NCBI GenBank assembly: GCA_964545165.1
Contig: CAZJEQ010000001.1
Location: forward strand, 65,971-129,970
Direction of reading: 5' to 3'
Source: an uncultured Candidatus Saccharibacteria bacterium
GTDB lineage: Bacteria > Patescibacteriota > Minisyncoccia > Phycocordibacterales > UBA2100
Length of the DNA stretch: 64,000 bases
Shown: positions 1,722 to 61,486 of the stretch, one piece after another
How positions within the stretch are numbered: position 1 is the stretch's first letter
How the letters are laid out: each line of letters opens with the position of its first letter
Made by a program: the position numbers and the translations under genes
Notes under the pieces: generated by a model
The model's input: the letters and a program-made list of their open reading frames with translations, nothing else
The model's database searches: none
Told to the model about the DNA's origin: nothing

Positions 1722-1830
1722 AAGGAAAAACGCTCCCGAAGTTTGAGAGTTTTAAGAGGCTGGGTTACCAACTCCGAGGCCTTTCGGGCGCTCTGGACTC
1801 CTGCCGCCATTGCGTCATTCCTTGAGGTGT

Positions 1831-3153
1831 ATGGAAACAACAGCCACAAGGGCACCGGGCGGCATTAACAGGCAGGCCACCCCCGCGCCCGTAAAGATCA
1901 GATACTGCCTGTATGCGAGAAAGAGCACCGAGGAAGAGGACAAGCAGGCGCTCTCTATAGAGTCGCAAGTGAGGGAGATGACCGCGATCGCCACGCGCGA
2001 AAACCTCGAGATCGTCGAGGTAAAGCGTGAGTCGCACTCCTCCAAGGAGGTTGGCCAGCGGGCGGTGTATAACCAGCTGCTTGAGGATATCCGGCAGGAA
2101 AAATTCAACGGCATCCTCACGTGGGCACCGGACCGCTTGAGCCGCAATGCCGGGGACCTCGGTGCGGTAGTGGACCTACTCGACCAAAAGAAGCTGGTCG
2201 AGATACGCACATTCACGCAGACTTTTACCAACAACCCGAACGAGAAGTTCATGCTCATGATTCTCGGGAGCCAGGCGAAGCTCGAGAACGACCAGAAAAT
2301 TATCAACGTGAAGCGCGGCCTTCGAGCGCGGTGCGAGATGGGCCTGCGGCCATCGACCGCGCCGACTGGCTACCTCAGCGAGAAGCGGACAGATCGCAAA
2401 TGCGAAGTCGTCATCGATCCGAAATGTGCCGGGACCATACGGAAGATATTCGAGAAAATCGGCAACGATGGGTGGAGCGGGCGGCAAACGCACCGATGGC
2501 TCACGAAGAACGGCTTCAAGACCCGGACCGGCAAGCGACTCTCGCTCGGGAATCTCTACACCGTTATCCGCAACACCTTCTACTACGGAGAATTCGAGTA
2601 CCCGCGCGGGAGCGGCAACTGGTATCAGGGTAAGCACGAGCCGCTCATCACCAAGGAACTGTTCGACAAAGTGCAGGAGTCAATCCAGGACCAGTACATC
2701 CCCAAAACCGAAAGCAAGGAATTCGCATTCACAAGGCTGATTGCGTGCGGCGTGTGCGGGAGCGGCATCACCGCTGACGAGAAATTCAAGAAGCTTAAGG
2801 ATGGCGGTGTGAACCGCCATGTCTACTACCGCTGCACGCACGCGAAGGACACGGAGTGCAAGAATCCGCCCGTGAACGAAACTGATCTCATCGAAGAGCT
2901 GACTAAGCTACTCGACACCATCGACATCGACGAGATTGGCATGAAGGAAAAAATCCGCGATGAGATATCCCGCTATAACAAATTTCGCACCGGCGTCTTA
3001 GGTATGAAAACCAAAGAACGCAGTAGCGATGTAGACCTGCGCGACTACGCCAAGTATCTCCTCAAAGAGGGTACAATCGCCGAGAAGCGCGAGTTGCTAT
3101 CTTGCCTCAAGAGCAAGCTGGTGCTCAAAGCCCGACAGATCAGCTTAAGCTGA
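1831..3153 (+). CDS. large serine recombinase (resolvase-type catalytic domain + recombinase domain + Zn ribbon)
   Basis: YCLYARKSTEEEDKQALSIESQ catalytic-serine motif. Zn ribbon CGVCGSG...YYRCTH. ORF track opens at 1810 with TTG; first ATG at 1831. Confidence 0.85.
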   Translation: METTATRAPGGINRQATPAPVKIRYCLYARKSTEEEDKQALSIESQVREMTAIATRENLEIVEVKRESHSSKEVGQRAVYNQLLEDIRQEKFNGILTWAPDRLSRNAGDLGAVVDLLDQKKLVEIRTFTQTFTNNPNEKFMLMILGSQAKLENDQKIINVKRGLRARCEMGLRPSTAPTGYLSEKRTDRKCEVVIDPKCAGTIRKIFEKIGNDGWSGRQTHRWLTKNGFKTRTGKRLSLGNLYTVIRNTFYYGEFEYPRGSGNWYQGKHEPLITKELFDKVQESIQDQYIPKTESKEFAFTRLIACGVCGSGITADEKFKKLKDGGVNRHVYYRCTHAKDTECKNPPVNETDLIEELTKLLDTIDIDEIGMKEKIRDEISRYNKFRTGVLGMKTKERSSDVDLRDYAKYLLKEGTIAEKRELLSCLKSKLVLKARQISLS

Positions 3154-3997: not shown

Positions 3998-4072
3998 TAC
4001 TATCCACTATGCCTCAACAGGCGTCGACATTAAAGGCGACCCCGCTCGGTCACTTGAATTAGCACTAACCTG

Positions 4073-4144
4073 TGCCCTCGGTAGGAATCGAACCTACATC
4101 AAGACCTTAGAAGAGTCCTGCACTATCCATTGTGCTACAAGGGC
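4073..4144 (-). tRNA. tRNA-Arg (anticodon TCT)
   Basis: Reverse complement folds as a cloverleaf: acceptor GCCCTTG/CGAGGGC, D-arm GCAC-AATGGATA-GTGC, anticodon stem GGACT/GGTCT with loop CTTCTAA, T-arm GTAGG-TTCGATT-CCTAC. CCA not encoded. Confidence 0.8.
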
Positions 4145-5079: not shown

Positions 5080-5646
5080 CCGTGCTGGCTTCGGATGTGA
5101 GATGTCTCTGAGTTTGTTGCGCGCATCGTTGAGGTGTGTGCGAATCTGCTCAGCCTCGGCGTTGAGACCAGTAGCGCGAATATTCGCGGCCTCTTTCGTG
5201 ATGAGGCCCCCGACGTGCGAGAGCACATTGGTTGCATGCGAGAGCGCTCGGACAGGGTGCGCGTCTACTGGATTATCATCATAAAAACTAAACAGCTCAC
5301 GAAATTCAGCGACCAGCGCTCCGGTCGTGGGTTCTCCCGCCTCACCCCGACGAGCTTTTTCAAAAAAATCCGCATACGCTTTCGAATTCCCGGTATTCAG
5401 CTTCCGCAAAAAGGGGATGATGGTCTCGGAGAACTTTTTCGACACGACATCGCGCACCGCGACGGTCTTCTCGTACTCCTCTTTGGTGAGTTGGAGTCGT
5501 TCCCATGCGGGTTTTTGATTCATCGTAGCCTGTTCTTGGGTGGTACGTGTCTGCGCCTCAGCGTCTGTGCTCTCCAATGCGGTCGCGGCGAGCGCGGCTG
5601 CACCCAATATAAGTCCGCGTCGATTCAAGTCCGGGCCTTCTTTCAT
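5074..5646 (-). CDS. hypothetical secreted protein with twin-arginine-like signal (MKEGPDLNRRGLILGAAALAATA)
   Basis: ORF track (263 aa) trimmed to internal Met so it does not overlap tRNA-Leu. TAAAAT box lies 7 nt before the ATG. Confidence 0.45.
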   Translation of the reverse strand: MKEGPDLNRRGLILGAAALAATALESTDAEAQTRTTQEQATMNQKPAWERLQLTKEEYEKTVAVRDVVSKKFSETIIPFLRKLNTGNSKAYADFFEKARRGEAGEPTTGALVAEFRELFSFYDDNPVDAHPVRALSHATNVLSHVGGLITKEAANIRATGLNAEAEQIRTHLNDARNKLRDISHPKPARK

Positions 5647-5876
5647 TCGGAGAATTTTACCATCAACAAGAACGCAAAAATCCGGTTGTATACCGGATTT
5701 TGCATTGGTGCGCAGGGCTCGGCCACGCGCTCGAAATTTTGCCGTCGCAAAATTTCTCCGCTCGGCCCTGCTTGGACATCCCCATCTTCTGATGGGGCCC
5801 CAGTCCGCGCTTTCGAGTCCTCTCCTGCGCCACAAAGACGAATGACCAGGACATGTCCTGGTCATTCGCTATTCTG

Positions 5877-5960
5877 TGCGCAGGAGAGGACTCGAACCTC
5901 CACGCCCTTGCGAGCACTACCACCTCAAGGTAGCTTGTCTACCAATTTCAACACCTGCGC
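5877..5960 (-). tRNA. tRNA-Leu (anticodon GAG), class II with long variable arm
   Basis: Reverse complement: acceptor GCGCAGG/CCTGCGC, 3-bp D-stem, anticodon stem CTACC/GGTAG with loop TTGAGGT, 15-nt variable arm, T-arm GGAGG-TTCGAGT-CCTCT, discriminator A. Confidence 0.8.
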
Positions 5961-6024
5961 GACAGCAGCATCCTAGCAAAGAATCTGCAATTCGCGAATA
6001 GCCACGCTTTGCTATCATTGGGGC

Positions 6025-6582
6025 ATGGCGTTCTACACGGGCAAAGGGGATGACGGGACGTCCAAGCTTTTCGATTCGGGCAAAGGTATCCGACTCACGA
6101 AATCATCGCCCATTTTTGAGTGTCTCGGGCAGCTCGATGAGCTGAATACGCTTGTCGGGTGGTGCAAAGCCGCGAGTGGAGAGCTCTCGGCCTATGATCG
6201 CTCGCTCAAGCTCATCTTGCATGATGTGCAGGACCACCTCTTTACGATCCAGGCAGAGGTCGCGGGTGCACAGAAGTCGGTGCCACTCTCCAATGTTGAG
6301 CATTTGGGAGAGTTCATCAAAGATATTGAATCAGTCTTGCCGCCGGTGACCTCCTTCCTCGTTCCGGGCGGGACCGAGCTCTCGGCACGCCTCGATATTG
6401 CGCGCGCTGTCTCGCGTCGTGCTGAGCGGCGATTGGTCATGGTGCACGAGAGCGGTGAGCGAGAGATTTCCGCATCATCGCGCGCGTATGCCAACAGGCT
6501 CTCCTCGCTTTTCTATGCGCTCACGCGACTCGTCAATCACTCTGCGGGTGTGGATGAAAATCCGCCTGTCTATAAAGCATGA
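6025..6582 (+). CDS. ATP:cob(I)alamin adenosyltransferase, PduO/MMAB type
   Basis: N-terminal YTGKGDDGTSKLF and ECLGQLDELNTLVGW match the PduO-family signature. TATCAT box 6 nt before the ATG. Confidence 0.7.
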   Translation: MAFYTGKGDDGTSKLFDSGKGIRLTKSSPIFECLGQLDELNTLVGWCKAASGELSAYDRSLKLILHDVQDHLFTIQAEVAGAQKSVPLSNVEHLGEFIKDIESVLPPVTSFLVPGGTELSARLDIARAVSRRAERRLVMVHESGEREISASSRAYANRLSSLFYALTRLVNHSAGVDENPPVYKA

Positions 6583-25959: not shown

Positions 25960-26550
25960 ATGAACGAGCCGCTGCCGCTTTTTTCGACACAGAAACTCGA
26001 CACGATCCTCTCAAAAGATGAGGAGGCGTTTACGATTATGCTCGGCCTGGACGAAGGACTGGTTGCGCAACTCAAACAGCGCTCTTCAGATATTGCTGAT
26101 ACCGACCTGCAAGAAAATACGTCTGATTTTCAGCGATTTGGCGAGGGCTCGTATGAGGAGTGGTATGCCAAAGATCGCACCCCGTATGCCCTCACCGACC
26201 AGGCGGGGAAGCTTGCGGCGCTCGCGTGGTTTGGCCCCAAGCCACTCGGCAGAAAGTCGTTGCGGTATCTCTCAGCTGATGAGCGAGCCAAAGAATCCGA
26301 ACAAGAAGCAGGGGATTGGCACACGATTGTGTATCGCTCGTACAACCCGTTTCGCGGCAAGGGACTCATGACGCCGTTTATGAAATACGTGATCGCCGAC
26401 TACAAGCAACGGCATCCCGGTGCGAAGCTCTGGGCAGGCGTGAGTACAAAAAATGCGGCAAGCATGGCGCTGGCAACGAAATTTGGTTTTGTTATATCAG
26501 AAGAACATTCTGATCCGGATGCCGCGTGGTGTGCGATGATAGAAAAATAA
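25960..26550 (+). CDS. GNAT-family N-acetyltransferase
   Basis: Motif A FRGKGLMTPFMKYVI. TACGCT box 6 nt before the ATG. Confidence 0.5.
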   Translation: MNEPLPLFSTQKLDTILSKDEEAFTIMLGLDEGLVAQLKQRSSDIADTDLQENTSDFQRFGEGSYEEWYAKDRTPYALTDQAGKLAALAWFGPKPLGRKSLRYLSADERAKESEQEAGDWHTIVYRSYNPFRGKGLMTPFMKYVIADYKQRHPGAKLWAGVSTKNAASMALATKFGFVISEEHSDPDAAWCAMIEK

Positions 26551-26551
26551 T

Positions 26552-27700
26552 ATGGCGCGCGTAAAACTGAGCGAATACAAGGCGAAGAGTATATTGCTGG
26601 GTGATCAGTACCAGGGTTTGCAGCTGCGCTCGGGGGAGGTGTGGAATATGCCATCGCCCCCTTCGGTCGCCAAAGTCGATCAGGGTATCAAAAAGCGCAT
26701 GAAGCAGGGGCTCGTGGTCATCAACAAATCTGCGAGCGAGATGGAAAGCGCGATGCACGAATGGGAGGGCAAGGGCTTCTCGCAATTTCTCATTGAGCCA
26801 CTTCTGCCGCATGAGGGCAGCGAAGAGCAGTACCTCTCGCTGGAGCGCGTGCGCGAAGGAATCCGTGTGCTCCATGCTGCGGGCGGCGGTGTAGACATCG
26901 AAGAGCACCCTGAGAAGGTCGGACAGTACCTTATTCGTGAGTCGGCGGATCTCGCCGCGGTCGCCACGCAGATGCAGCTACCCGAGGATTTTCTGACGAA
27001 TCTCTATGAGCGGTTCAACAAAGATTTTTTCGCGTTTCTCGAGATCAATCCGCTCGTCGTGAAAGATGGTGTGGTGCATCTGCTCGACGCGGCAGTGCTC
27101 GTTGATAGTGCGGGAGAATTTTTCACCAAAAGCTGGGGAGGAGACGACGTGGTTCGTGCTGCCGCCAAGCACGAGGCTGAGGCGCGTGTGGAAGAACTTG
27201 CTGCGACGACACCCTCCTCGCTCAAGCTCTCGGTAATCAATCCCGACGGCGCACTCTTTTTCCTGCTCTCGGGTGGTGGTGGCTCCATCGTGATTGCCGA
27301 CGAAGCGCAGCTCGAAGGTGTCGGGGATTTGATGGGCAATTATGGCGAGTACAGCGGCGGACCGACTCGTGAGGAGACGTATCTGTACGCCAAAGAGGTG
27401 ATCGGCCTCATGCTCGGCTCGAAGGCCTCGAAAAAGGCGCTGATCATCGCGGGAGGCGTCGCGAATTTCACTGATGTGAAGAAAACTTTTGCGGGGATTA
27501 TTGATGCACTGAGCGAGGAGGCAGATGCGCTGCGCACTCAGGGCATCAAGGTCTTCGTGCGTCGCGGTGGTCCCAACGAAGCAGCAGGGCTCGCCTTGAT
27601 GAAAGACTTCTTGGAGAAAGAGCAGCTCCTCGGCTCTATGGCAGGTTCTGACGCAGTGATCACGAGCGCCATCGACGAGGCAATTCAATTCATCAAATAG
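26552..27700 (+). CDS. aclB: ATP-citrate lyase beta (small) subunit, ATP-grasp/SucC-like
   Basis: Blocks FLIEPLLPH, FAFLEINPLVV, NYGEYSGGPTREETYLYAKE, IIAGGVANFTDV, VFVRRGGPNEAAGL closely parallel the eukaryotic ACLY N-terminal region. Confidence 0.8.
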   Translation: MARVKLSEYKAKSILLGDQYQGLQLRSGEVWNMPSPPSVAKVDQGIKKRMKQGLVVINKSASEMESAMHEWEGKGFSQFLIEPLLPHEGSEEQYLSLERVREGIRVLHAAGGGVDIEEHPEKVGQYLIRESADLAAVATQMQLPEDFLTNLYERFNKDFFAFLEINPLVVKDGVVHLLDAAVLVDSAGEFFTKSWGGDDVVRAAAKHEAEARVEELAATTPSSLKLSVINPDGALFFLLSGGGGSIVIADEAQLEGVGDLMGNYGEYSGGPTREETYLYAKEVIGLMLGSKASKKALIIAGGVANFTDVKKTFAGIIDALSEEADALRTQGIKVFVRRGGPNEAAGLALMKDFLEKEQLLGSMAGSDAVITSAIDEAIQFIK

Positions 27701-27701
27701 T

Positions 27702-29483
27702 ATGACGGTCATCGAACAGGCACGAAAAGGCGCAGACGGCATCCTGGTCATCGGGAATCATCCGGTGATGGTGCAGGCGATTTTGGATTTTGATTTTCTC
27801 GCCGGCAAACAAACGCCGTCGATCATCGGTATGATCGCGGGGACGCGTAAGACACAGAAATTCTTTTTTGGCACCTCAGAGATTCTCGTTCCGTGCTTCA
27901 AATCGCTCGCCAAAGTGCCAGCAGGATTGGATGCTCGGGTGAAGTGGATGCTCAATGCACAATCCGGTCGCCGTACATTTGAGAGCACGGTGCAATTCTT
28001 CGAGCGTTTCCCAGAAGCCCTCGGCGGACACCTCTTTGCAGAAAATGTGCCCGAGAGTCACGCGACGGAATTAATTCGTCGCTTCGGCTCTCGCTATGTC
28101 ATCGCCGGTCCTTCGGGTGTGGGGATTCTCGTCTCGGGCCACCTCAAGCTTGGCGCCATCGGCGGCGTGGACCTCGCGCAGATCGAGGCGGGCAAGCTCC
28201 ACACGCCGGGTACCATCGCGGTTGTCTCGACCTCGGGGGGTATGACCAATGAGCTCATTCGCGCTGTCTCAGCGCGCGGCAAGCGAGTCTCATTCTCCAT
28301 TTCTATCGGCGGCGATCGGTTTCCCGTGACGTCGCTCACCGATGTACTCTCGCTTGCAGAAGCGGACGAGGAAACGAAAGCGATCGTGTACTTCGGTGAA
28401 TTGGGCGGCTCAGATGAGTATGAAATCGTCGAGATGATCAAGGGAGGGAAGCTCACCAAGCCCATCCTCTGCTACATCGCGGGTGTCATCGACGAGGCCT
28501 TCGACGAGCACATGCAGTTTGGTCATGCCAAAGCGCTCGTCGCACGCAAAGACGAAAGCGCGCGTGCCAAACGCGATGCGCTCTCGGCGGCAGGTGCGAT
28601 CGCGCCGGCGTCCTTCCCGCAATTCCTCACCGAAATCGAGAAGCTTCCCGGCGAGAGTCGTGATAGAGTCGTGGATGTAACACCGCTTATGAATCGCAAG
28701 GCAAGCATTCTTTCGACCCGTAAAATCGTCGATCTCGAGGCGGTCCCGGTATTTGTAAAAGACGGTGCGCTCGTGAAGCAGCCAGAAAATGCCTTCGCGG
28801 CAGCAGCGATCAAGGCGATGATCGGCAAGGAAGTTTCTCCCGAAACCGCCGCACTCGTCGAAAATATTTTTGAACTCCTTATTGATCACGGCGGTCATGT
28901 CTCCGGTGCGGTCAACACCATGATCACTGCTCGTGCCGGCAAAGACATGGTCTCCTCTCTCGCGACCGGACTTCTCACCGTAGGTCCGCGATTTGGTGGC
29001 GCGGTGAACGAAGCTGCGCGTGCGTGGCACGAGGGCGTGCAGGGCAAGAAAGATGCCGCCGTCTTCGTCGAGGAGAAAAACCGCGCCGGACAGCTCCTCT
29101 CGGGTATCGGCCATCGCAAATACCGCGTCGGTATCCCTGATCCGCGTGTCGCCGCGATTGCAGAATTCTCCACACTGCTCTCTGCGCATCCGCACTACGA
29201 TTTTGCGCGCGCCGTCGAAGGTGTCACGACTGCCAAGAACGGGAATCTCATTCTGAATGTCGATGGTGTCATGGCCGCGCTCATACTCGATATGCTTGCC
29301 GAGAAAGACGGCTTTACGGATGCAGAGCTCCAGGAGCTGATCGACGCGGAATTTTTCAATGCACTCTTTGTCATCCCGCGCACTGTCGGTTTCATCTCGC
29401 ACTTCATCGAACAAAAAAAGAATGACGAGGGACTCTTCCGCTTGCCGGACGAACTCCTCTTCGAGCAAGGGGATAGTGAGTAG
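27702..29483 (+). CDS. aclA: ATP-citrate lyase alpha (large) subunit: CoA-binding/SucD-like + citrate-synthase-like domain
   Basis: MVQAILDFDF, EILVPCFKSL, GGDRFPV, QFGHAKA (phospho-His), HGGHVSGAVNTMITARAGKDMVSSLATGLLTVGPRFGGA, GIGHRKYRVGIPDPRV, LILNVDGVMAALILDML all parallel ACLY blocks. Confidence 0.85.
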   Translation: MTVIEQARKGADGILVIGNHPVMVQAILDFDFLAGKQTPSIIGMIAGTRKTQKFFFGTSEILVPCFKSLAKVPAGLDARVKWMLNAQSGRRTFESTVQFFERFPEALGGHLFAENVPESHATELIRRFGSRYVIAGPSGVGILVSGHLKLGAIGGVDLAQIEAGKLHTPGTIAVVSTSGGMTNELIRAVSARGKRVSFSISIGGDRFPVTSLTDVLSLAEADEETKAIVYFGELGGSDEYEIVEMIKGGKLTKPILCYIAGVIDEAFDEHMQFGHAKALVARKDESARAKRDALSAAGAIAPASFPQFLTEIEKLPGESRDRVVDVTPLMNRKASILSTRKIVDLEAVPVFVKDGALVKQPENAFAAAAIKAMIGKEVSPETAALVENIFELLIDHGGHVSGAVNTMITARAGKDMVSSLATGLLTVGPRFGGAVNEAARAWHEGVQGKKDAAVFVEEKNRAGQLLSGIGHRKYRVGIPDPRVAAIAEFSTLLSAHPHYDFARAVEGVTTAKNGNLILNVDGVMAALILDMLAEKDGFTDAELQELIDAEFFNALFVIPRTVGFISHFIEQKKNDEGLFRLPDELLFEQGDSE

Positions 29484-29614: not shown

Positions 29615-31627
29615 ATGCCTCCTTCGGATCATGAACAAGAGCGTGTCGAGCGCTTGAAGCGCGCAATGTATAGCCGCGACCTTTCGGGCAAGCTGAAAGA
29701 GCGCCCGCGCCATGAGCTCGACGATGGGAAGGCGCCGGTAGGAGAGGACTGGGTGCGCCCTGAGCCGAGCATCGCCGGTGTCCCTGTCGCACCCAAGGTC
29801 TTGCACATGACACGATCACTCCTCAAATGGTTTCTCATGATCGCCGTCCTGTTTTTTGTCGTGGCGGTTGCGTTTTTCGTCTACTTCTTTGCATTTGGCT
29901 CCGGATCGCACCCGGCGTCGCCGAGCAACATCGACATTACCGTCACCGGCCCGCCGACCATTGCGGGGGGAGAAATATCAGAGTTACAGGTGGTCATCCA
30001 GAATCGCAACAATGTCCCGCTCGAGCTTGCTGATCTGGTAGTGAACTTCCCATCGGGAACACGTTCGCCGGCGGATTTTGCAACCGATCTGCCATCGACC
30101 CGTATTCCACTCGGCACCATTCCTCCTGGTGGAAAGCGACAGGGGACCATTCCTGCCGTCTTCTCCGGTGCAGGCTCATCGAAATCGAATGTGTTGGTTC
30201 AGTTGGAGTATCGTGTCGGCGGATCTAATGCAATTTTCCTGGCCAAGCGCGATTACGCGATTACCTTCCGCACCTCACCGATCGTGATATCGATTGACGG
30301 CAATACCGAGACGGTCTCGGGTCAGCCCGTGCGCTTTACCGCCAATGTCGTCTCCAATGCGAGTGCGCCGCAAAAAGATATCGTGCTTCATATCGACTAT
30401 CCTTTTGGTTTTTCTCTTACGGGTGCTGATCCTTCGCCAAACGCTGCGAATACCTGGTACTTGGGAGACTTTGCGCCAGGCGAAGTAAAGTCGGTGGAGA
30501 TCAATGGCACCGTGCGCGGTGAGCCAGGCGACGCGCGCGTGTTTCATCTCACGGCGGGCACGCGCAAGAGTCCGCAAGCATCGACGATCGACACCAAGCT
30601 TGCCGATAGCACGCACCCGATGCGCATCTCAGACTCTTTCCTCGGTCTCTCGATTGGCATCAATAGCGGATCGAAAACAGCGCCGGAGTCAGATCCGTTT
30701 ACGACCGTGCTCTCAACACAAGGTGCGGCGATCGTTGGTCCTGGTGAGACGGTCGCGGTCACCGTCTCATATGTAAACAATCTTTCGACCGCGATTACCG
30801 ACGCCATTATCGTAGCCCGGCTCACGGGGCTCCCGATAGATGGCTCAACCGTACGCACTACCGACGGCTTCTATCGCTCGAGCGATGGCGTGGTTCTGTG
30901 GGACAAAACGACGACCAAAGGAAAGCTCGGTACGATTGCTGCGGGTGCGCATGGGACGCTTTCCTTCACCTTCAAGGCACCGGACATTAAAGCGATCAAC
31001 GGCAGTGCCGCGGTGGACATTAGCGTCAACGCGGCAGGTAAGCGCGCCTCGGAGACAAACGTCCCGCAAAATCTGCAGTCTGCCGCCGTAAAGAAAGTGC
31101 AAATCGCATCCAATCTGCAGCTGTTTGCGCAGGGCCTGTACTACACCAATCCCTTCCTCGAAAATCGTGAAGGTCCTATGCCGCCGAAGGCACAGATCGA
31201 GACCAACTACGGCCTCCTCTTTACCATCACCAATACGACAAGCCGCATAACCAATGCACGCCTTACGGCGCATCTGCCGTCCTATGTGCGCTGGCTCGGC
31301 AAATATGCTCCTGGCTCGGCTGCCATAACAGTGAGTGCGGCGGATGGGACCGTGACGTGGAATGTGGGCGATATTGCGCCCGGTACCGGCATCACGGGGA
31401 CGGAGCCGCTCCAGGCAGCAATCCTGGTCGGCTTTACACCCTCAACCTCACAAATCGGCCAGGTCCCGGTCTTGCTCGAAGATATCGTGCTCACTGGTAC
31501 CGATAGCGCGACCGGTCAGAAGATCATATGCGGCGAGAGCACGACCAGCTGTGCCGCCAAGGACATTACGACCAATCTCTCGGGAGATGCGGGCTTCAAT
31601 CCGGGCGATGGCATCGTTGCGCAATAG
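29615..31627 (+). CDS. hypothetical single-pass membrane protein with large extracellular beta-rich repeat domain (DUF11/CARDB-like)
   Basis: ORF track 670 aa. TM helix at ~70-95. S/T/G-rich repetitive beta-type sequence. TAGAAT box 7 nt before the ATG. Confidence 0.55.
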   Translation: MPPSDHEQERVERLKRAMYSRDLSGKLKERPRHELDDGKAPVGEDWVRPEPSIAGVPVAPKVLHMTRSLLKWFLMIAVLFFVVAVAFFVYFFAFGSGSHPASPSNIDITVTGPPTIAGGEISELQVVIQNRNNVPLELADLVVNFPSGTRSPADFATDLPSTRIPLGTIPPGGKRQGTIPAVFSGAGSSKSNVLVQLEYRVGGSNAIFLAKRDYAITFRTSPIVISIDGNTETVSGQPVRFTANVVSNASAPQKDIVLHIDYPFGFSLTGADPSPNAANTWYLGDFAPGEVKSVEINGTVRGEPGDARVFHLTAGTRKSPQASTIDTKLADSTHPMRISDSFLGLSIGINSGSKTAPESDPFTTVLSTQGAAIVGPGETVAVTVSYVNNLSTAITDAIIVARLTGLPIDGSTVRTTDGFYRSSDGVVLWDKTTTKGKLGTIAAGAHGTLSFTFKAPDIKAINGSAAVDISVNAAGKRASETNVPQNLQSAAVKKVQIASNLQLFAQGLYYTNPFLENREGPMPPKAQIETNYGLLFTITNTTSRITNARLTAHLPSYVRWLGKYAPGSAAITVSAADGTVTWNVGDIAPGTGITGTEPLQAAILVGFTPSTSQIGQVPVLLEDIVLTGTDSATGQKIICGESTTSCAAKDITTNLSGDAGFNPGDGIVAQ

Positions 31628-46518: not shown

Positions 46519-47095
46519 CACGAGATATCGTGGCCTTATAAGGCTGCGAAATCACATGAAGGTCTCTTGAAATGAAGGGGCCAGTGGCCCGTCTATATTA
46601 TTGACTCCATTGCGGGGCTGGAGTAGGCTAAGGCCTCGCTTGGGTCATAAATGTGGCGGTAATACGCCCTTTTTTGCCCAAGTTATCCACAAAACGCCAG
46701 AGTGCCTAAAGCGCCTTGCGTATTGTGTCACGTATAATTGCGCTTGATGCAGTGAATGCATCTACAAAGCGCAACACGCTTCGTTGTTCATTGACATTTC
46801 AATATTGATTACGATTTCCGGGTGTAGCACACCCAATTCTTCATGAGAGTAAATGCTCATGAATGTTTTCTGCATGGCCGCTTTGTCCGGATACGATAGA
46901 AAGACTGATACGAAAGATTCCCTTCTCGCTGCTAATCCCAGACTCCGCGTCGACATTATTAAAGGAGTAGGGGCTAGCATAATTATTAGTTTTCTTTTTT
47001 CTCACGAAAGAAGAAAGCACAACGCTGACATTTTCACGTCGAATGAATTTGAAAGCGGTCTCGATTTAATCGAGATAACAAGTCAACATCAAACT

Positions 47096-50000
47096 ATGAG
47101 TAAAGCATTAGCAACGAAAAACGTTGCGGCAGTGCTCCTTTCTGTAGCGATGGTTGTCACGTTCGCATTCGCATTTGCCACTCCGGCAAAGGCGCAGTCG
47201 ACGACTGACCTCCAGGCTCAGATCAACGCACTTCTCGCACAAATCGCAGCCCTTCAGGGCAATACGGGTTCTCAGCAGGTAGGGGGACTCAAATGCACCA
47301 CTACCTTCACACAGAACCTCAAACAGGGTTCAACAGGAGGTGAGGTCATGGCCCTCCAGAAGTTCCTCAACAGCGTTGATGGCACGCAAATTGCCACCGC
47401 TGGAGCAGGTTCTCCTGGTAATGAAACATCCTACTTCGGTGCAGCCACGAAAGCTGGCGTAATCAAGTTCCAGGAAAAATTCGCGGCGGACATCCTTACA
47501 CCGGTAGGCCTCTCAAAGGGCACCGGTAATTGGTTCGGTTCCACGCGCGCCAAGGCCAACGCACTCTGCGTCGGTGCAGGCACTGGTACTGGTACCGGCA
47601 CTGGTACCGGCACTGGCACGGCAACGGGCAGCACGACGACTGGTGGCAACATCATGGTCGGTGCTTCTTCGCAGCCGGCTAACTCGCTCGCTCCGGAAGG
47701 TGCAGCGCGTGTTCCGTTCACAACCCTCACTCTCACCAACACCTCGGGTGCTGCTGTCACGATCAACTCGATCGCAGTGCAGCGCACGGGTCTCGGTGCG
47801 GATGCGGTCTTCTCCGGTCTCGTCCTCGTGGATGAGATGGGTACGCAGCTCGGTACGAGCCGCACGCTCAACTCGAACCACCAGGCGAACGTCGGTGATG
47901 CCTTCGTGATCCAGCCGGGCCAGACCAAGACCCTCACGGTCGCTGGTAACATGGCTGCAACGCTCGACAGCTACGCAGGTCAGGTCGTCTCGATCTCTGT
48001 CATCGGCGTCAACACGTCGGCGACGGTCTCTGGTTCGCTCCCGATCTCGGGTGCTTCTCAGACGATCAACGGCACGCTCACGATCGGTGCAATCTCGGCA
48101 GGTCTCGGATCATCCGACCTCAACTCGGCTCAATCGAACACTTCGCTTGGAACGAGCAACCTCATCGGTGGCTCAATCCGCCTCACCGCGGGTTCTGCTG
48201 AAGATGTGTGGGTCAAGTCGATCCGCTGGAACCAGTCTGGTTCTGCTTCGGCTTCGGACCTTGCCAATGTCATGACTGTCATCGATGGTACGAACTATCC
48301 GGCGAACGTTTCGTCTGACGGCAAGTACTACACGACGGTCTTCCCAGGCAACGGCATCATGATCGCCAAGGGCCTCAACAAAGAAGTCACGGTCAAGTTT
48401 GACTCGGTCGGTGGTGCTGATCGCACAATCGAATTCGATGTCTACAAGAACACGGACATCTACGCTGTTGGTGGTACCTTCGGATACGGCATCGGTGTGA
48501 CGCAGAGCCAGAACGGCTCAGTGTCTACTGGTTCTGAATTCACGAGCGGTACGCCGTTCTACTCTGGCTCTGTCTTCACGATCGCAGCAGGTACGGTCAC
48601 GTCCCTCGCTCGCGCTAATGAAGTTCCGGCTCAGAACATCGCAGTTGGCGCTCCTAATCAGGCTCTCGGCGGTTTCGCCATGGACGTGAAGGGAGAGGCT
48701 ATCTCGGTGCAAAACCAGACCTACCACATCACCTACACCAACTCTGCAGCTGACAACGGCGAATACCTCACGGGTGTCCGTCTCGTCAACGAGAACGGTG
48801 CAGTTGTAGCAGGTCCGGTGGATGCAGTCGCTGACGGTAACCAGCAGAAGGTAACGTTCACCGACACGGTGACGTTTGCTACTGGTCGTCACGTCTACAC
48901 CCTCCAGGGTCAGCTTCCGACGACGATCTCCAACGGTCAGACGCTCGTTGCGTCGACCACTCCGGGTGCGGCAACGAATCCGGACTGGAGCAACGTTACC
49001 GGTCAGACGACTGGCAACTCGATCTCGCTCACGGCTCTTACGTCAATCGTTACGGGTAACACCATGACGGTCCGCACAGGCTCTGTCGTCTTCTCGACGG
49101 CATCACAGCCTGCTGCTCAGACGGTAGTCGCAGGTGTCTCTGGTCAGGCTGTTTCTGGCGTCGCATTCGACGCTACGCAGTCTGGTGAGGACGTCCGCTT
49201 CAACTCAGCCAAGTTCAAGTTCAACGAAATCGGTACGTCGTTGAACGCGGGCGAAATCCCGACGAACTGCTTCGCCTTCGATGGTGCAACGCGTCTTAAC
49301 GACACGGCTGTCAACATCACGGGTACAGCTGGCGACGATTCTGCTGACACAAACTTCACCTTCAACACGCCTCTCGTAGTCACGAAGGGCACGGTGAAGA
49401 CCGTCACGATCAAGTGTGATATCCCATCAGGCGCTACCGGCTCATTCAGCTGGGGTGTCGTCTCGACCGCTACCTTCACCGGTACCGGCACGCAGTCGAC
49501 GCAGGGCATCACGCCTACGTCTTCGACGGGTGCTACACAGACGGGTAACACGATGACTCTTGCTTCGGGCGGTAACCTCACGGTCACTCTCGATTCATCG
49601 TCACCGTCGTACAAGGTCGCTGCTGTTGGTGCCAATGGCATCAGCGGTCAGACGCTCTCTGTCCTCCGCTTCTCAGGTACGAACGAAAACATGCGTCTCG
49701 ATCGCGTAGCGCTCGAGCTCGCAGGTGCTTCTTCGTCTCCTGCAAACATCAACCAGGTCACCCTCTGGGCTCCTGTTGATGGTAGCGGCATGTACTCGTC
49801 TTCGGGCACGATGACGCAGGTTGGTACCGCGATCTTCGCTGGTACTGATTACGCTACTTCGACCCTCTCGAGCACGCTCATCATTCCGGCCAACCAGTAC
49901 GCGATCGTGACGGTCAAGGGCGACCTTGCCGGCATCTCGCTCAACGGTTCCGGTACGTCGGGCTCGCTCCTCGCGGTCAACTACGATGGCGGTGATTCCA

Positions 50001-50728
50001 CGGGTACCCGTGCTATCGGTATGTCATCTGGTTCCACGATCAATCAGGGCTCGGCTTCTGACACGGCAGCTGCAGGTGTTCGCACCTTCAAGACCAAGCC
50101 AGTCGTCGTCGCTCCGATCGCACTCAGCAGCAACACGCTTGTTGTCGCTGGTGGCCAGGAGCTCTACCGCTTCTCGATCACGGCTGATGCTGCCGGTGAT
50201 GTCGGCCTCAACAAGGTCACCATCAACGTCGCAACGTCATCTGACTCGGTTGCTGTAGGTTCGACCTCGGTTAGCGGTATGGACTTGTATGCCTTCACTG
50301 ATGCGGCTATGTCGCAGGGTGTTGCAGGCTTCACGTCTGGTCTCATCTCAGACAACTCGGGCGGTGTCGCCAACGGCGATAACGACCTCGTTGTCAACGC
50401 GAGCGGCCAGACCAAGGTCCAGGTCCCAGCTGGCACGACGATCTACTTCAAGGTAGTCGGCGATGTCGCTCAGACCGGTACTGCTTCTGGTACTCGTACG
50501 GGCTCGGTCACCACGAAACTCTCGGGTGATTCGAACTACCCATCGTTCGCTGCCAACGTCTTCATGGGCACGGCAACAACGATTGAGGCTGATGCCAACG
50601 ACAACTTCATCTGGTCGCCGAACTCGACGACCACGTCTCCGACGACCACTCACATCGATTGGACGAACGGTTACGGTATCGACGGCCTCCCGGCTGGTGG
50701 TACGAACTCAGTTACGTTGTCTAAGTAA
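47096..50728 (+). CDS. giant cell-surface protein (~1210 aa): signal peptide, peptidoglycan-binding domain, (Gly-Thr)n linker, tandem beta-rich/Ig-like repeats
   Basis: MSKALATKNVAAVLLSVAMVVTFAFAFATPAKA signal. LKQGSTGGEVMALQKFLN...GVIKFQEKF matches PG_binding_1. GTGTGTGTGTGTGT follows. Remainder is repetitive and S/T/G/V-rich. Confidence 0.75.
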   Translation: MSKALATKNVAAVLLSVAMVVTFAFAFATPAKAQSTTDLQAQINALLAQIAALQGNTGSQQVGGLKCTTTFTQNLKQGSTGGEVMALQKFLNSVDGTQIATAGAGSPGNETSYFGAATKAGVIKFQEKFAADILTPVGLSKGTGNWFGSTRAKANALCVGAGTGTGTGTGTGTGTATGSTTTGGNIMVGASSQPANSLAPEGAARVPFTTLTLTNTSGAAVTINSIAVQRTGLGADAVFSGLVLVDEMGTQLGTSRTLNSNHQANVGDAFVIQPGQTKTLTVAGNMAATLDSYAGQVVSISVIGVNTSATVSGSLPISGASQTINGTLTIGAISAGLGSSDLNSAQSNTSLGTSNLIGGSIRLTAGSAEDVWVKSIRWNQSGSASASDLANVMTVIDGTNYPANVSSDGKYYTTVFPGNGIMIAKGLNKEVTVKFDSVGGADRTIEFDVYKNTDIYAVGGTFGYGIGVTQSQNGSVSTGSEFTSGTPFYSGSVFTIAAGTVTSLARANEVPAQNIAVGAPNQALGGFAMDVKGEAISVQNQTYHITYTNSAADNGEYLTGVRLVNENGAVVAGPVDAVADGNQQKVTFTDTVTFATGRHVYTLQGQLPTTISNGQTLVASTTPGAATNPDWSNVTGQTTGNSISLTALTSIVTGNTMTVRTGSVVFSTASQPAAQTVVAGVSGQAVSGVAFDATQSGEDVRFNSAKFKFNEIGTSLNAGEIPTNCFAFDGATRLNDTAVNITGTAGDDSADTNFTFNTPLVVTKGTVKTVTIKCDIPSGATGSFSWGVVSTATFTGTGTQSTQGITPTSSTGATQTGNTMTLASGGNLTVTLDSSSPSYKVAAVGANGISGQTLSVLRFSGTNENMRLDRVALELAGASSSPANINQVTLWAPVDGSGMYSSSGTMTQVGTAIFAGTDYATSTLSSTLIIPANQYAIVTVKGDLAGISLNGSGTSGSLLAVNYDGGDSTGTRAIGMSSGSTINQGSASDTAAAGVRTFKTKPVVVAPIALSSNTLVVAGGQELYRFSITADAAGDVGLNKVTINVATSSDSVAVGSTSVSGMDLYAFTDAAMSQGVAGFTSGLISDNSGGVANGDNDLVVNASGQTKVQVPAGTTIYFKVVGDVAQTGTASGTRTGSVTTKLSGDSNYPSFAANVFMGTATTIEADANDNFIWSPNSTTTSPTTTHIDWTNGYGIDGLPAGGTNSVTLSK
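47575..47630 (+). repeat. in-frame hexanucleotide tandem repeat (GGYACY)x~7 encoding (Gly-Thr)n inside the surface-protein gene
   Basis: GGCACTGGTACTGGTACCGGCACTGGTACCGGCACTGGCACG read directly from the sequence. Confidence 0.7.
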
Positions 50729-53088: not shown

Positions 53089-55809
53089 ATGAAGCGAGCG
53101 CTCAGTCTCGTGGCTCTGACAACAGTCCTCGGTTTCCCAGCTTTACTCTTTGCGGACAGTTGTTCGACACAAGGCTATTCGGTCTTCATAGTAAATGGAA
53201 TTTTTAATACTCAGGAGAAAGCAGACGAAGGTTCCGATAAGCTTAAAGATTTACTGGGGGACAGTTTGAATAAAGAAGCACTGACGGTACGATCCGCCTA
53301 CAATCCGACCCATATAGCCGGTTTGGGCGATGTTGTGCAGGCAGTGACGCAGGCTTTTAACCAACCAGTTAGTAATTTTGACCGAGACACTATTTTACAT
53401 CGTATTCATTCTCAACTTAAGACGCAAAAAATCTTATTAGTCGGACATTCGCAAGGGACTTTTTACACAAACGAGCTCTATAAATATCTGACGACGCATG
53501 GGGTGCCGAAAGAATCTATCGGCGTCTACAATATCGCGACTCCGGCGAGTTATGTGGAAGGGGGTGGTGGGTATGTGACTTCTACCAATGACAAGATTAT
53601 TAATCTTGTTCGCAATACAGAGGTTGATGGAAATCTCAGTATTCATCTCAATTCATACTACGTGCTCGGCAACACGGTGAATTCTGCGCTGCGTGCGAAC
53701 ATTACAGTGCCCAAAGAGCCGGGCTACGACCAGAGCGATTTTGGTGGGCATAAACTCAGTGTGTATCTCGACGGTGCTGCACCGCGAATCATGAGCGATA
53801 TCGATGCGTCTTTGCGTCGACTCAAGGCGAGCGGGGGCTCAAGTAGTGAGTCGTGTTTTGAACCACCTGTCGAGGACATCTCGTATAAAGCCAAGTCTCT
53901 CTTCTATGCGATGGTGGATCCGCTTGCTGAGGGGACCAAGACGGTCGCGGTCGCAACGCGAAATGGTGCCGAAGGATTTACCGACTACGTCGCTGCAGGT
54001 ATCAATGATACAAAAAGCTTTGCGCAATCAGTCTTCAAGAATCTCGCGTCTGCGAACAACAGCTCGACCAATCAGGCGGCCGCAGCCGTGCTCGCGACTC
54101 CAGTTATCACTACAAAGCCCGTGCCGCAAAACGCACCCAAGCCTCCTCCTGCGCCAGTCACAAAAGTAACTGTTCAGACGCCGAGCCAGGCCGATTCGGT
54201 AAAGCTGCCTGTGCAATCGCCCGATATGGAAAAAGCGCCGGAGGAAAATAATCGAGAGCCAGTAGCGCCCGCTGTCGTTTCGACAGCGGGTTTTGGTGGT
54301 GGACAGCCCAGCTCGCCACAACAACAAGATCCTACGATGGTTGCGCTTTCTATAACTGCGCCTGCCAACAACGCCTTAGTAGCGACATCCTCGGTCGTTC
54401 TTGTCGGGACGGCAGACGTGGGCGCGTTAGTCACCGCGAGTTTCAATTCGTTGAGTGCGACGACAACAGCGGACGGGGCGGGTGAGTGGACTGTGCAACT
54501 CACTCTGCTCGAAGGAACCACCACGGTGACGGTGAGCGCGGTTGATGCAGCAGGGAAGAGTTCAGCAGTGCTGTCTCGCGACATAGTGGTAGATACAATG
54601 GCACCCACAGCGCCGACGCTCGGCATACTCGAATGCGCATCGACCATCGTGACAGGGCTCTGCGTCGTTCCGATTACTGCCGCGACGCTCGATTGGTCGG
54701 ATTCTGGCGCGGACCACTATCGCATTTTTAGAGACGGAGGATATGTCGCAAGTTTCATAGCGACCTCGAGCACTCAAGCAATCTCGACCAACGCAACTTC
54801 GAGTTTCGAGGTAGTTGCGTACGATCTCGCTGGCAATGCTGCGACCTCAAGTGCTGTAAATATCTACGCACTGTCTCAATCTGTCATCATCAACGAAATA
54901 GGATGGGGTGGGACCGACACCGGCAGTGTCTCAGGACAGCAATGGATCGAGCTCAAAAATATGTCTGCATTTATGATCGATCTCTCGCACGTGGTGATCT
55001 CGCGCTCTGGCGGAGCGGAGATAGCGCTCGCTGGCGCAAGCATTCCTGCTCACGGCGGGCTCGTCGTCGAGCAAACAGACATTGCATTCACCGGCACAAA
55101 CAAGCTCGTCACTCCTTTCTCAGATCTCTCCACGGTCGCGGCAGAACAACTTGCGATTACCTGGCGTGGAACGCTACTTGATGCGAGTCCTGCGGTCAGC
55201 ACTTGTTCATCGTGGTGTTCGGGAGGGCTCAATGTATCAATTGGCACCAATGTGAGTGGTGTTGCTGGGTTCACTTCGTCACTCTCGATGGAGAGAGTGA
55301 CGAATGCCGCAGATGGAACGCTCGCTTCTAGCTGGCAGAGTACGGATAGCTACAACGCGGCTTTCTGGGGTACGCCCAATGTTGAGAATAGCAGTGGCTT
55401 GCCGGAGAGTGGGGTCATTTGTAGCGCCGGCGGCTTACTGGTGCCAAGTGCAACAACGCGTCCCTACGATACCGGCAATGTTTCGTGCACCTACCTAATG
55501 AAATTTATCTCGAGCGGCACGACTGGCGCACCTCGCTATGCCGGTCTCTACATGGGCACCGTGGGAAGCTCGACCGTGATCAACGCGCATTTCTTCAGCA
55601 AGTCTATGCAACGCGAGAGTACTGATGTGGTGCCGCCGGGGACTCCTGCTGGCACAGAATTCTTCTTTGTGATCTACGAAGCGCCGACATGGATGGATGC
55701 GGTCACGCCATTCGGAATGTATTTCACCAAGGGCTCCGACCCTGCAAATGGCGGTGCTCCGCCGCCGCACGGCAATTACGTAACCATCCCATTCGTCTAC
55801 CAACCCTGA
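53089..55809 (+). CDS. secreted multidomain protein: alpha/beta-hydrolase (lipase/esterase GHSQG) + Big-like repeats + lamin-tail domain (LTD)
   Basis: Signal peptide. LLVGHSQGT nucleophile elbow. Central T/S/A-rich Ig-like region. VIINEIGWGG...QWIELKN...IDLSHVVI matches the LTD signature. Confidence 0.7.
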   Translation: MKRALSLVALTTVLGFPALLFADSCSTQGYSVFIVNGIFNTQEKADEGSDKLKDLLGDSLNKEALTVRSAYNPTHIAGLGDVVQAVTQAFNQPVSNFDRDTILHRIHSQLKTQKILLVGHSQGTFYTNELYKYLTTHGVPKESIGVYNIATPASYVEGGGGYVTSTNDKIINLVRNTEVDGNLSIHLNSYYVLGNTVNSALRANITVPKEPGYDQSDFGGHKLSVYLDGAAPRIMSDIDASLRRLKASGGSSSESCFEPPVEDISYKAKSLFYAMVDPLAEGTKTVAVATRNGAEGFTDYVAAGINDTKSFAQSVFKNLASANNSSTNQAAAAVLATPVITTKPVPQNAPKPPPAPVTKVTVQTPSQADSVKLPVQSPDMEKAPEENNREPVAPAVVSTAGFGGGQPSSPQQQDPTMVALSITAPANNALVATSSVVLVGTADVGALVTASFNSLSATTTADGAGEWTVQLTLLEGTTTVTVSAVDAAGKSSAVLSRDIVVDTMAPTAPTLGILECASTIVTGLCVVPITAATLDWSDSGADHYRIFRDGGYVASFIATSSTQAISTNATSSFEVVAYDLAGNAATSSAVNIYALSQSVIINEIGWGGTDTGSVSGQQWIELKNMSAFMIDLSHVVISRSGGAEIALAGASIPAHGGLVVEQTDIAFTGTNKLVTPFSDLSTVAAEQLAITWRGTLLDASPAVSTCSSWCSGGLNVSIGTNVSGVAGFTSSLSMERVTNAADGTLASSWQSTDSYNAAFWGTPNVENSSGLPESGVICSAGGLLVPSATTRPYDTGNVSCTYLMKFISSGTTGAPRYAGLYMGTVGSSTVINAHFFSKSMQRESTDVVPPGTPAGTEFFFVIYEAPTWMDAVTPFGMYFTKGSDPANGGAPPPHGNYVTIPFVYQP

Positions 55810-60161: not shown

Positions 60162-60653
60162 ATGAGCGATGTCTTTCTCGGGTTGGGAAGTAATCTCGGC
60201 AATCGCATCGAGAATTTGCGTCGTGCACTCATCGCGCTCGAAGAGCATGTCGCGGTGAGTGAGAAATCGTCGGTCTACGAGAGTCTGCCACATGGCGTCG
60301 ATGATCAGCCCTTCTATTTAAATATGGTGGTCCGTGCGACCACGCCGCTCACGCCACGCGGACTCCTCGCTGCCGTGAAGATGGTGGAGCAAAATATCGG
60401 CCGCGAGCCCAATACCCATCATCTGCCGCGCCCGATCGATATCGACATCCTTATGTACGGCGACGAGGTCGTGCAGGATGATGATCTCTCTATTCCGCAT
60501 CGCGAGCTGCACAAGCGCGCGTTTGTGCTGGTACCGCTCGAAGAGCTCGCGTCATTCCATATGCATCCCACGCTCCGAAAGCCCGTGATTGATCTGCTCG
60601 ATGAGCTCGGCGGATACGAGGGATTGGTATGGCCAGCGGATGACCGACTATGA
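60162..60653 (+). CDS. folK: 2-amino-4-hydroxy-6-hydroxymethyldihydropteridine pyrophosphokinase (HPPK)
   Basis: FLGLGSNLG, PRPIDIDIL, HRELHKRAFVLVPL motifs. Confidence 0.9.
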   Translation: MSDVFLGLGSNLGNRIENLRRALIALEEHVAVSEKSSVYESLPHGVDDQPFYLNMVVRATTPLTPRGLLAAVKMVEQNIGREPNTHHLPRPIDIDILMYGDEVVQDDDLSIPHRELHKRAFVLVPLEELASFHMHPTLRKPVIDLLDELGGYEGLVWPADDRL

Positions 60654-61486
60654 GTTTCGCGTGGGGCAAGTACACCCAGGTCATGGGTATTGTGAATGTG
60701 ACACCCGATTCATTCTCGGGTGATGGCATGTCAGAGATCGACGATGCGGTCGCGCAGGGAATACAGATGGCGCGCGATGGTGCACACCTACTCGATGTGG
60801 GCGGCGAGAGTACGCGCCCCGGCTCCACACCAGTGTCGCTCGAAGATGAGCTTGCGCGAGTCATTCCCGTCATCGAGAAGCTCGCGCGGGAAGTCCCAAT
60901 CCCGATATCGATAGATACGTACAAAGCTGAAGTCGCGCGGCGCGCGATCACTGCGGGTGCGTCCATCATCAACGACGTCTGGTCCGGCGCGATGGACCCG
61001 GCGATGCTGCCGCTCGCAGCAGAGATGCGCGTACCGATTATTCTCATGCACAATCGCTCACGTCCGAAAGACGCGGCCCAAGAGGAGATACTCGGCGGGC
61101 GCTACATCGGTGTCGAGTACGATGACCTGATTGCAGATATCTCCGACGAATTGCAGGAGCGCATTGATGCCGCGATCGATGCGGGAATCGCGCGTGAGCA
61201 TATCATCATCGATCCCGGCATCGGCTTCGGCAAAACAGTCGAGCAAAATCTCACGCTCGTGCGTCGCCTTGGCGAATTCAAGAAGCTCGGTTTTCCGCTA
61301 CTCGTCGGCCCGTCGAGGAAATCCTTTGTCGGGTACACGCTTGCGCTCCCGCCGGACGAGCGGGTGGAGGGGACAGCGGCCGCGGTCGCACTCTGTATCG
61401 ATCGCGGGGCAGACATGGTGCGGGTGCACGATGTGAAGAGTATGGTGCGGGTCGCGGCGCTCGCCGACGCCGTGCGCGCCTCATGA
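60650..61486 (+). CDS. folP: dihydropteroate synthase
   Basis: GIVNVTPDSFSGDG, DVGGESTRPG, IDTYK, pterin-binding barrel motifs. ATGA overlap with folK. Confidence 0.9.
   Translation: MSFAWGKYTQVMGIVNVTPDSFSGDGMSEIDDAVAQGIQMARDGAHLLDVGGESTRPGSTPVSLEDELARVIPVIEKLAREVPIPISIDTYKAEVARRAITAGASIINDVWSGAMDPAMLPLAAEMRVPIILMHNRSRPKDAAQEEILGGRYIGVEYDDLIADISDELQERIDAAIDAGIAREHIIIDPGIGFGKTVEQNLTLVRRLGEFKKLGFPLLVGPSRKSFVGYTLALPPDERVEGTAAAVALCIDRGADMVRVHDVKSMVRVAALADAVRAS

Follow-up and report, generated by a model that had tools for sequence, protein, structure and literature searches.

The 64-kb stretch of bacterial DNA presented above (contig CAZJEQ010000001.1; hereafter the window, meaning the stretch at its full length) carries two adjacent genes, aclB and aclA, that encode a predicted two-subunit ATP-citrate lyase (ACL; EC 2.3.3.8). 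On balance, we consider it probable that the pair specifies an apparently competent heteromeric enzyme, vertically inherited in its lineage of candidate phyla radiation (CPR) bacteria and forming no part of a reductive tricarboxylic acid (rTCA) cycle, which most likely cleaves scavenged citrate to provide acetyl-CoA for acetylation.

Identification of a two-subunit ATP-citrate lyase

AclB (positions 26552 to 27700, + strand; 382 aa) combines an ATP-grasp domain with a citrate-binding domain, and AclA (positions 27702 to 29483, + strand; 593 aa) combines a CoA-binding/ligase region bearing the phosphohistidine loop with a fused citryl-CoA lyase module related to citrate synthase. A single base separates the two genes (TAG-T-ATG). 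These coordinates and sizes agree exactly with those in an earlier note made from the sequence alone, and every motif quoted in it is present in the translations (FLIEPLLPH, LEINPLVV, NYGEYSGGP, ANFT, FVRRGGPN, LDFDF, ILVPCFK, GDRFP, QFGHA, NTMITARAGKDMVSSL, GHRKYRVGIPDPRV, and LILNVDG). In Pfam searches, AclB recovered the Citrate_bind domain (PF16114; 1.4e-47, 162 bits against a cutoff of 26.8) and the ACL ATP-grasp domain (PF24948; 3.6e-29, 102 bits against a cutoff of 83). AclA recovered Ligase_CoA (PF00549; 9.9e-14) together with Succ_CoA_lig (PF13607) at residues 169 to 304 and the C-terminal domain of citrate synthase (PF00285, Citrate_synt; 6.9e-26) at residues 360 to 580, with the CoA ligase and lyase modules lying in one 593-aa chain. 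The citrate synthase-like domain, on whose presence the earlier note had made the assignment hinge, is thus detected by profile search.

Searches against proteins of solved structure gave ACLs as the best matches of both subunits. AclA aligned with human ACLY (3e-97, 329 bits) in two stretches that correspond to both halves of the protein (ACLY residues 501 to 793 and 887 to 1087), followed by Methanosaeta concilii ACLY-B (6e-90) and, at a greater distance, Chlorobium limicola AclA (1.6e-59, 205 bits). Succinyl-CoA synthetase (SCS) alpha (~1e-21, 79 bits), citryl-CoA synthetase (CCS; Protein Data Bank [PDB] code 6HXQ; 2.5e-17, 66 bits), and citryl-CoA lyase (CCL; 6HXP; 1.4e-14, 57 bits) scored far lower. 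The ranking was the same for AclB, whose matches to the N-terminal half of human ACLY (1.2e-53) and to the M. concilii "citrate lyase subunit 1" (1.5e-52) are far ahead of those to SCS and CCS (2.5e-11 for the latter). The claim of the earlier note that the genes specify ACL and not SCS is therefore upheld; its claim of likeness to both eukaryotic ACLY and the Chlorobium enzyme stands for the eukaryotic (and Methanosaeta) type, whereas Chlorobium AclBA is more distant.

Since these enzymes belong to a common superfamily, weak matches to SCS and CCL models also appear, and the genes might in principle be a misread SCS or a CCS-plus-CCL system. However, the scores against the curated NCBIfam models fall far below their cutoffs, both for SCS (TIGR01016, 45 bits against 375; NF004230, 106 bits against 336) and for CCL (75 bits against 212). 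Furthermore, AclB carries the ACL-specific Citrate_bind domain, and the ligase and lyase modules form a single chain, which is the ACL arrangement and not that of CCS plus CCL. SucCD was rejected as an identity on account of the subthreshold SucC and SucD models and the extra ACL-specific domains. The Hydrogenobacter-type CcsAB/Ccl system, in which the lyase is a separate ~260-aa protein, was likewise rejected because here the lyase is fused to the ligase domains and the match to ACLY is far ahead. An SCS or CCS/CCL identity is thus extremely improbable and effectively excluded.

Active-site conservation and a clade-specific phosphohistidine loop

We examined the conservation of functional residues, numbered according to an alignment with full-length human ACLY, in 119 full-length AclA homologs and 33 AclB homologs. 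The window AclA keeps E599 (in the motif LFAE), H760 (QFGHA), H900 (DHG), H975 and R976 (GHR), and D1026 (LNVDG). Its H275 is equivalent to the human phosphohistidine H760 and its E114 to the helper glutamate E599; both are invariant (119/119). Across the homologs, the positions of H975 and D1026 are likewise invariant, H900 is kept in 116 and R976 in 96 of the 119, so that the lyase module residues corresponding to the triad of citrate synthase (human H900, H975, and D1026) are retained in 116, 119, and 119 sequences, respectively. AclB keeps G309 (EYSGGP), N346 and T348 (ANFT), and R379 (VRRGG), which we take to be the citrate-binding residues of human ACLY, and these four positions, along with human K58, are invariant in all 33 homologs. 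Given that both sets show little or no variation at the catalytic and citrate-binding positions, AclBA is predicted to be a catalytically competent enzyme under purifying selection.

The loop itself departs from the usual form in one respect: residues 272 to 278 of AclA read QFGHAKA, giving GHAKA where the canonical motif is GHAGA, with the catalytic histidine kept. All 119 of the sequences of Paceibacteria type have GHAKA, as do most members of the wider CPR clade; nearly all of the remaining ACL representatives have GHAGA or GHAGS, among them sequences of fungal, Chlorobiaceae, Nitrospinae, Saccharibacteria, and DPANN type. As judged from these alignments, GHAKA is a clade-specific variant of the phosphohistidine loop motif. 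Its occurrence in an otherwise nearly universal loop amounts to a natural experiment on the phosphohistidine swing mechanism of the SCS/ACL superfamily.

Host lineage, distribution, and inheritance

An exhaustive HMMER search of 1.84 billion cluster representatives recovered 130 clusters at E <= 1e-30. The closest homologs of AclA (66 to 100% identity) fall in at least 120 clusters (90% identity), whose names, where given, are Kaiserbacteria, Paceibacterota, Parcubacteria, Liptonbacteria, or Minisyncoccia. When each GTDB species was scanned by way of a single genome, 40 ACL loci emerged, all of them in metagenome-assembled genomes (MAGs) of the Patescibacteria type. Many related genomes share the recurrent gene order ArgRS-Pif1-IleRS-RecO-GNAT-AclB-AclA-DUF11-GlyRS-AI2E-MetRS, and the GC content around the ACL genes (0.55 to 0.58) is that of the rest of the window. 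Taken together, the affiliation of the homologs and loci, the conserved order, and the unexceptional GC content identify the predicted host as a Kaiserbacteria/Paceibacterota-type CPR (Patescibacteria) bacterium; the conservation of gene order across related genomes, in particular, indicates that aclBA has probably been inherited vertically and not acquired by recent transfer.

A neighbor-joining tree with 100 bootstraps was built from 57 full-length AclA regions aligned over 573 columns. In it, the window AclA belongs to a CPR clade that also comprises a Dojkabacteria sequence and several others (bootstrap 90, or 71 with P0129 included). Outside this clade lie the Chlorobiaceae and Nitrospinae, which group together (bootstrap 100), the group to which a fungal sequence belongs along with further long fused forms, a lineage of Saccharibacteria type (35% identity), and one DPANN sequence (Norongarragalinales). 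The earlier note had looked to phylogeny to place the enzyme among known ACLs; the tree sets it in a CPR clade of its own, apart from the Chlorobiaceae and Nitrospinae, but the deep nodes have bootstrap values of <50 and do not assign it a non-CPR sister lineage. Two loci outside the Paceibacteria clade (L043 and L044) represent a second, Saccharibacteria-type ACL lineage, ~35 to 39% identical to the window AclA and with a GHAGA loop; more than one entry or diversification of ACL in the CPR is therefore possible.

The view expressed in the earlier note that ACL is rare outside rTCA autotrophs and eukaryotes no longer holds: ACL is widespread among CPR bacteria, occurs also in DPANN archaea, and has been published in Patescibacteria without the rest of the rTCA cycle (PMC9671151, PMC6851277). 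A curated Gracilibacteria genome was found to encode a two-subunit ACL, for which a route from imported citrate to acetyl-CoA and oxaloacetate was predicted (PMC6851277; Sieber et al. 2019), Patescibacteria MAGs with aclAB and without other rTCA genes have been described (PMC9671151, citing Probst et al. 2017), aclAB is enriched in Saccharimonadia MAGs (PMC12577380), and eukaryotic ACLA/B has been placed next to DPANN sequences (PMC11976288, published in 2025). The identification made here is thus correct and not new in kind. What appear to be new in the searchable literature are the commonness of this ACL family in Kaiserbacteria/Paceibacterota, its near-universal linkage to a GNAT gene, and the GHAKA loop.

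Gene content of the window and the question of autotrophy

The 40 larger open reading frames (ORFs) of the window were scanned against Pfam. They encode housekeeping or cell surface proteins or received no assignment (ArgRS, Pif1, IleRS, RecO, GlyRS, MetRS, TatD, RecA, FtsK, thymidylate kinase, dihydropteroate synthase, glycosyltransferases, and large surface proteins). No central-carbon or autotrophy enzyme was found among these ORFs of the 64-kb window, including 2-oxoglutarate:ferredoxin oxidoreductase, fumarate reductase, and pyruvate:ferredoxin oxidoreductase, and the statement of the earlier note that nothing else in the window suggests autotrophy holds for them. ACL is the usual rTCA marker gene in metagenome surveys (PMC12930757, PMC9386943), and by that usage the enzyme would be read as the key step of an rTCA cycle and the organism as an unrecognized autotroph. 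We find this highly improbable because the scanned ORFs include no other rTCA gene and because the others are reportedly missing from Patescibacteria MAGs with aclAB (PMC9671151); the CPR clade, moreover, excludes the Chlorobiaceae and Nitrospinae representatives, which form their own well-supported group. For the routine use of ACL as a marker of rTCA carbon fixation, this large and probably nonautotrophic CPR family would be a source of false positives.

Linkage to GNAT acetyltransferases

Upstream of aclB lies a gene for a GNAT-family acetyltransferase (positions 25960 to 26550, + strand; 196 aa) with weak Pfam matches to Acetyltransf_3 and Acetyltransf_1, which is likewise separated from aclB by a 1-nt spacer (TAA-T-ATG). 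In a promoter and terminator scan from 22 to 32 kb, sites were no more numerous than in shuffled sequence, and no operon was delimited. We searched the sequence upstream of aclB with hidden Markov models built from two GNAT families, c5 (~200 aa, the type in the window) and c11 (~145 aa). Of the 35 loci having upstream sequence, 34 carry a GNAT gene there on the same strand (at a distance of <=60 nt in 30), and in the remaining locus (L014), a GNAT gene lies directly downstream of aclA, so that a GNAT gene stands beside aclBA in all 35. Both families occur within the same wider synteny groups, a single locus can carry both (L015), and the linkage is kept across at least five different flanking contexts. 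In a more distant locus of the GHAKA clade, the place upstream of aclB is taken not by a GNAT gene but by one for an AT3 membrane acyltransferase (PF01757; L046:1629-2729, + strand); at other distant loci, the neighbors encode MurB and an EamA transporter or are uninformative.

In all, 337 members of the c5 family are detectable, and they all appear to come from this lineage; many lie on contigs of the same lengths as those of AclA hits. Among three c5 genes checked independently, one abuts aclBA, one is separated from it by an intervening split transketolase (L052:4626-5893, + strand), and one occurs without aclBA. Another variant arrangement upstream of aclB is a HAD hydrolase-GNAT fusion (L034:7645-8817, + strand). 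Candidate GNAT-ACL fusions among odd-length representatives were rejected, the sequences being fragments of fused ACLs. An AlphaFold model of the c5 protein (pLDDT 91) gave as its top Foldseek matches Streptomyces lividans Pat, Mycobacterium tuberculosis Rv0998, Escherichia coli PatZ, RimL, RimJ, and NatD, at TM-scores of ~0.6 and 11 to 17% identity; the modeled fold is that of a GNAT, and these matches do not fix its substrate. The c11 type shows weak matches to RimI, diamine acetyltransferase, and glucosamine-6-phosphate acetyltransferase models, and NCBIfam and PDB sequence searches assigned no substrate to either family.

Proposed role and alternatives

We propose that citrate scavenged from the host, the surroundings, or necromass would be taken up and that AclBA would convert citrate, ATP, and CoA to acetyl-CoA, oxaloacetate, ADP, and phosphate. 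The acetyl-CoA would feed acetylation in a cell with few other routes to it, the first consumer probably being the GNAT encoded next to aclB, and the oxaloacetate would provide a C4 skeleton. Cleavage is the direction suggested by the neighbors, because these use acetyl-CoA: GNATs of two families accompany the enzyme across varied wider contexts, and a distant locus has an acyltransferase in the same place. The proposal bears on the supply of acetyl-CoA in ultrasmall symbionts devoid of a tricarboxylic acid (TCA) cycle, for which the conserved acetyltransferase partner suggests a testable answer, namely, that host citrate is used for acetylation.

The main rival of citrate cleavage is the reverse reaction, also raised in the earlier note, in which the enzyme would act as an ATP-conserving citrate synthase (acetyl-CoA, oxaloacetate, ADP, and Pi giving citrate, CoA, and ATP) and gain a fermentative cell one ATP per thioester. 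The ACL reaction is near equilibrium, and reversal is thermodynamically possible; Desulfobacter postgatei is reported to run its ACL in this direction (work of Moeller, Schauder, Fuchs, and Thauer from 1987). The reliance of CPR bacteria on substrate-level phosphorylation and the intact residues for both half-reactions would also accommodate it. We nevertheless judge reversal unlikely, since no TCA cycle is in evidence that would use the citrate, no oxaloacetate-generating enzyme was found among the scanned ORFs of the window, many CPR bacteria have simpler ATP-yielding routes from acetyl-CoA, and the conserved GNAT and AT3 neighbors consume acetyl-CoA and so fit a producer of this compound better than a competitor for it.

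Several observations weigh against citrate cleavage for acetylation as well. Neither a citrate transporter nor an oxaloacetate-using enzyme was seen in the window or the conserved neighborhood; citrate transporters, malate dehydrogenase, and phosphoenolpyruvate carboxykinase were sought among the conserved neighbors in the 40 loci, where the recurrent genes, as identified by recognizable motifs, are of the housekeeping kind (UvrABC, Ddl, MurF, IF-3, LexA, Pol IV, and PcrA). The GHAKA loop deviates from the GHAGA form of nearly every other ACL examined. A Kaiserbacteria-type locus (that of protein P0383; JGI sample 3300050821) has the array IleRS-RecO-GNAT-DUF11-GlyRS-AI2E with aclBA missing, and therefore the GNAT is not strictly dependent on an adjacent ACL, which, to judge from this locus, is lost or moved in some close relatives. 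The Saccharibacteria-type ACL loci have no neighboring acetyltransferase, being flanked by a NUDIX hydrolase and a methyltransferase. Finally, the dense, same-stranded genomes of CPR bacteria make adjacency alone weak evidence, and the c5 and c11 linkages may each stem from a single ancestral event.

A further possibility concerns the loop. The protein might be an ACL derivative with altered chemistry or regulation, in which the lysine beside the catalytic histidine alters phosphotransfer or is a regulatory site acetylated by the adjacent GNAT, as in the product feedback that Pat exerts on acetyl-CoA synthetase. The invariance of GHAKA in the Paceibacteria-type sequences, set against the GHAGA or GHAGS of nearly all other ACLs, is consistent with this, as is the structural resemblance of the c5 GNAT to protein lysine acetyltransferases that regulate acyl-CoA synthetases (Pat, Rv0998, and PatZ). 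However, the similarity is modest, and the substrate of a GNAT cannot be read from its fold; the c11 type rather resembles small-molecule or N-terminal acetyltransferases, some members of the GHAKA clade have no adjacent GNAT, and all the other ACL residues are canonical. We therefore hold such a departure from ordinary ACL function to be improbable.

Returning to citrate cleavage, we tentatively entertain the possibility, doubtful as it is, of a dedicated ACL-acetyltransferase module in Paceibacteria-type CPR bacteria, in which scavenged citrate would serve as an acetyl group currency that is cleaved on demand for the acetylation of proteins or the cell envelope. The lysine of GHAKA might then be a feedback site for the GNAT, a speculative idea that draws on fold similarity and on the analogy with Pat and acetyl-CoA synthetase. 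If such a module exists, it would parallel, in a prokaryote, the axis that connects ACLY with acetyltransferases in eukaryotes.

Other features of the window

The gene following aclA (positions 29615 to 31627, + strand) encodes a protein of 670 aa, probably located at the cell surface, that has a membrane anchor at its N terminus and weakly matches a DUF11/CLIPPER repeat; the gene keeps its place in all Kaiserbacteria-type loci, including one without aclBA. Two other large proteins, of 1,291 aa (46853 to 50728, + strand) and 906 aa (53089 to 55809, + strand), have only weak peptidoglycan-binding or Ig-like matches, and the gene for the latter lies in a local GC dip (0.49 at 52 to 54 kb) beside a PaaX-like regulator. 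A large serine recombinase (1810 to 3153, + strand; Resolvase, Recombinase, and zinc ribbon domains) is encoded beside a tRNA-Arg gene (4072 to 4144, - strand) in the part of the window with the lowest GC content (0.505 to 0.524), which may be the edge of an integrated element. ARAGORN calls a tRNA-Leu(GAG) at 5876 to 5960 (- strand) that the Rfam tRNA model does not report at its gathering threshold; a 280-aa ORF with no Pfam match (5134 to 5976) overlaps this call and is probably spurious. Cofactor-related genes in the otherwise minimal gene set are those for a PduO-type cob(I)alamin adenosyltransferase (6025 to 6582, + strand) and dihydropteroate synthase (60650 to 61486, + strand).

Comparison with known systems

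The best-scoring relatives of solved structure are Methanosaeta (Methanothrix) concilii ACLY-A/B (PDB codes 6HXI and 6ZNW) and human ACLY (6HXH and 6O0H, among others), at 305 to 330 bits for AclA and ~183 to 186 bits for AclB, with which the window proteins share the domain order and the catalytic and citrate-binding residues. Nonetheless, the window AclA is only ~37 to 40% identical to cluster representatives of the eukaryotic/Methanosaeta type, AclB is ~20 to 40 residues shorter in the ATP-grasp region (382 aa against 421 to 425, the Pfam match starting at profile position 34), the loop reads GHAKA in place of GHAGA, and the genes are split, whereas animal ACLY is fused. The rTCA enzyme of C. 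limicola (AclB/AclA; 6HXJ) is similar in having two subunits of comparable sizes and the same architecture, but it is more distant (205 and 114 bits for AclA and AclB, respectively), the Chlorobiaceae lie outside the CPR clade, and its setting is an autotroph as opposed to the reduced, symbiont-like heterotroph to which the window belongs.

A parallel in setting is the ACL predicted in a Gracilibacteria (BD1-5) genome, likewise found in a CPR host without the rTCA cycle and proposed to turn external citrate into acetyl-CoA and oxaloacetate (PMC6851277). By the description in that paper, it has a GHAGA motif and citrate transporters nearby, whereas the family represented in the window has GHAKA, no linked transporter, and linkage to a GNAT; furthermore, the same paper describes ACL as "rarely detected in CPR," in contrast to the abundant family found here in Paceibacteria. 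As for the GNAT-ACL pair, it is comparable, by analogy and with no claim of membership, to Pat and PatZ, in which an NDP-forming acyl-CoA synthetase-like domain is fused to a GNAT: both arrangements pair a GNAT domain with a protein or domain of the SCS/ACD/ACL superfamily, and the GNAT domains of Pat, PatZ, and Rv0998 are the best matches of the window GNAT model. In the window, however, the two components are separate genes, and the synthetase-like part is a complete and, as far as its sequence indicates, active ACL with its lyase module.

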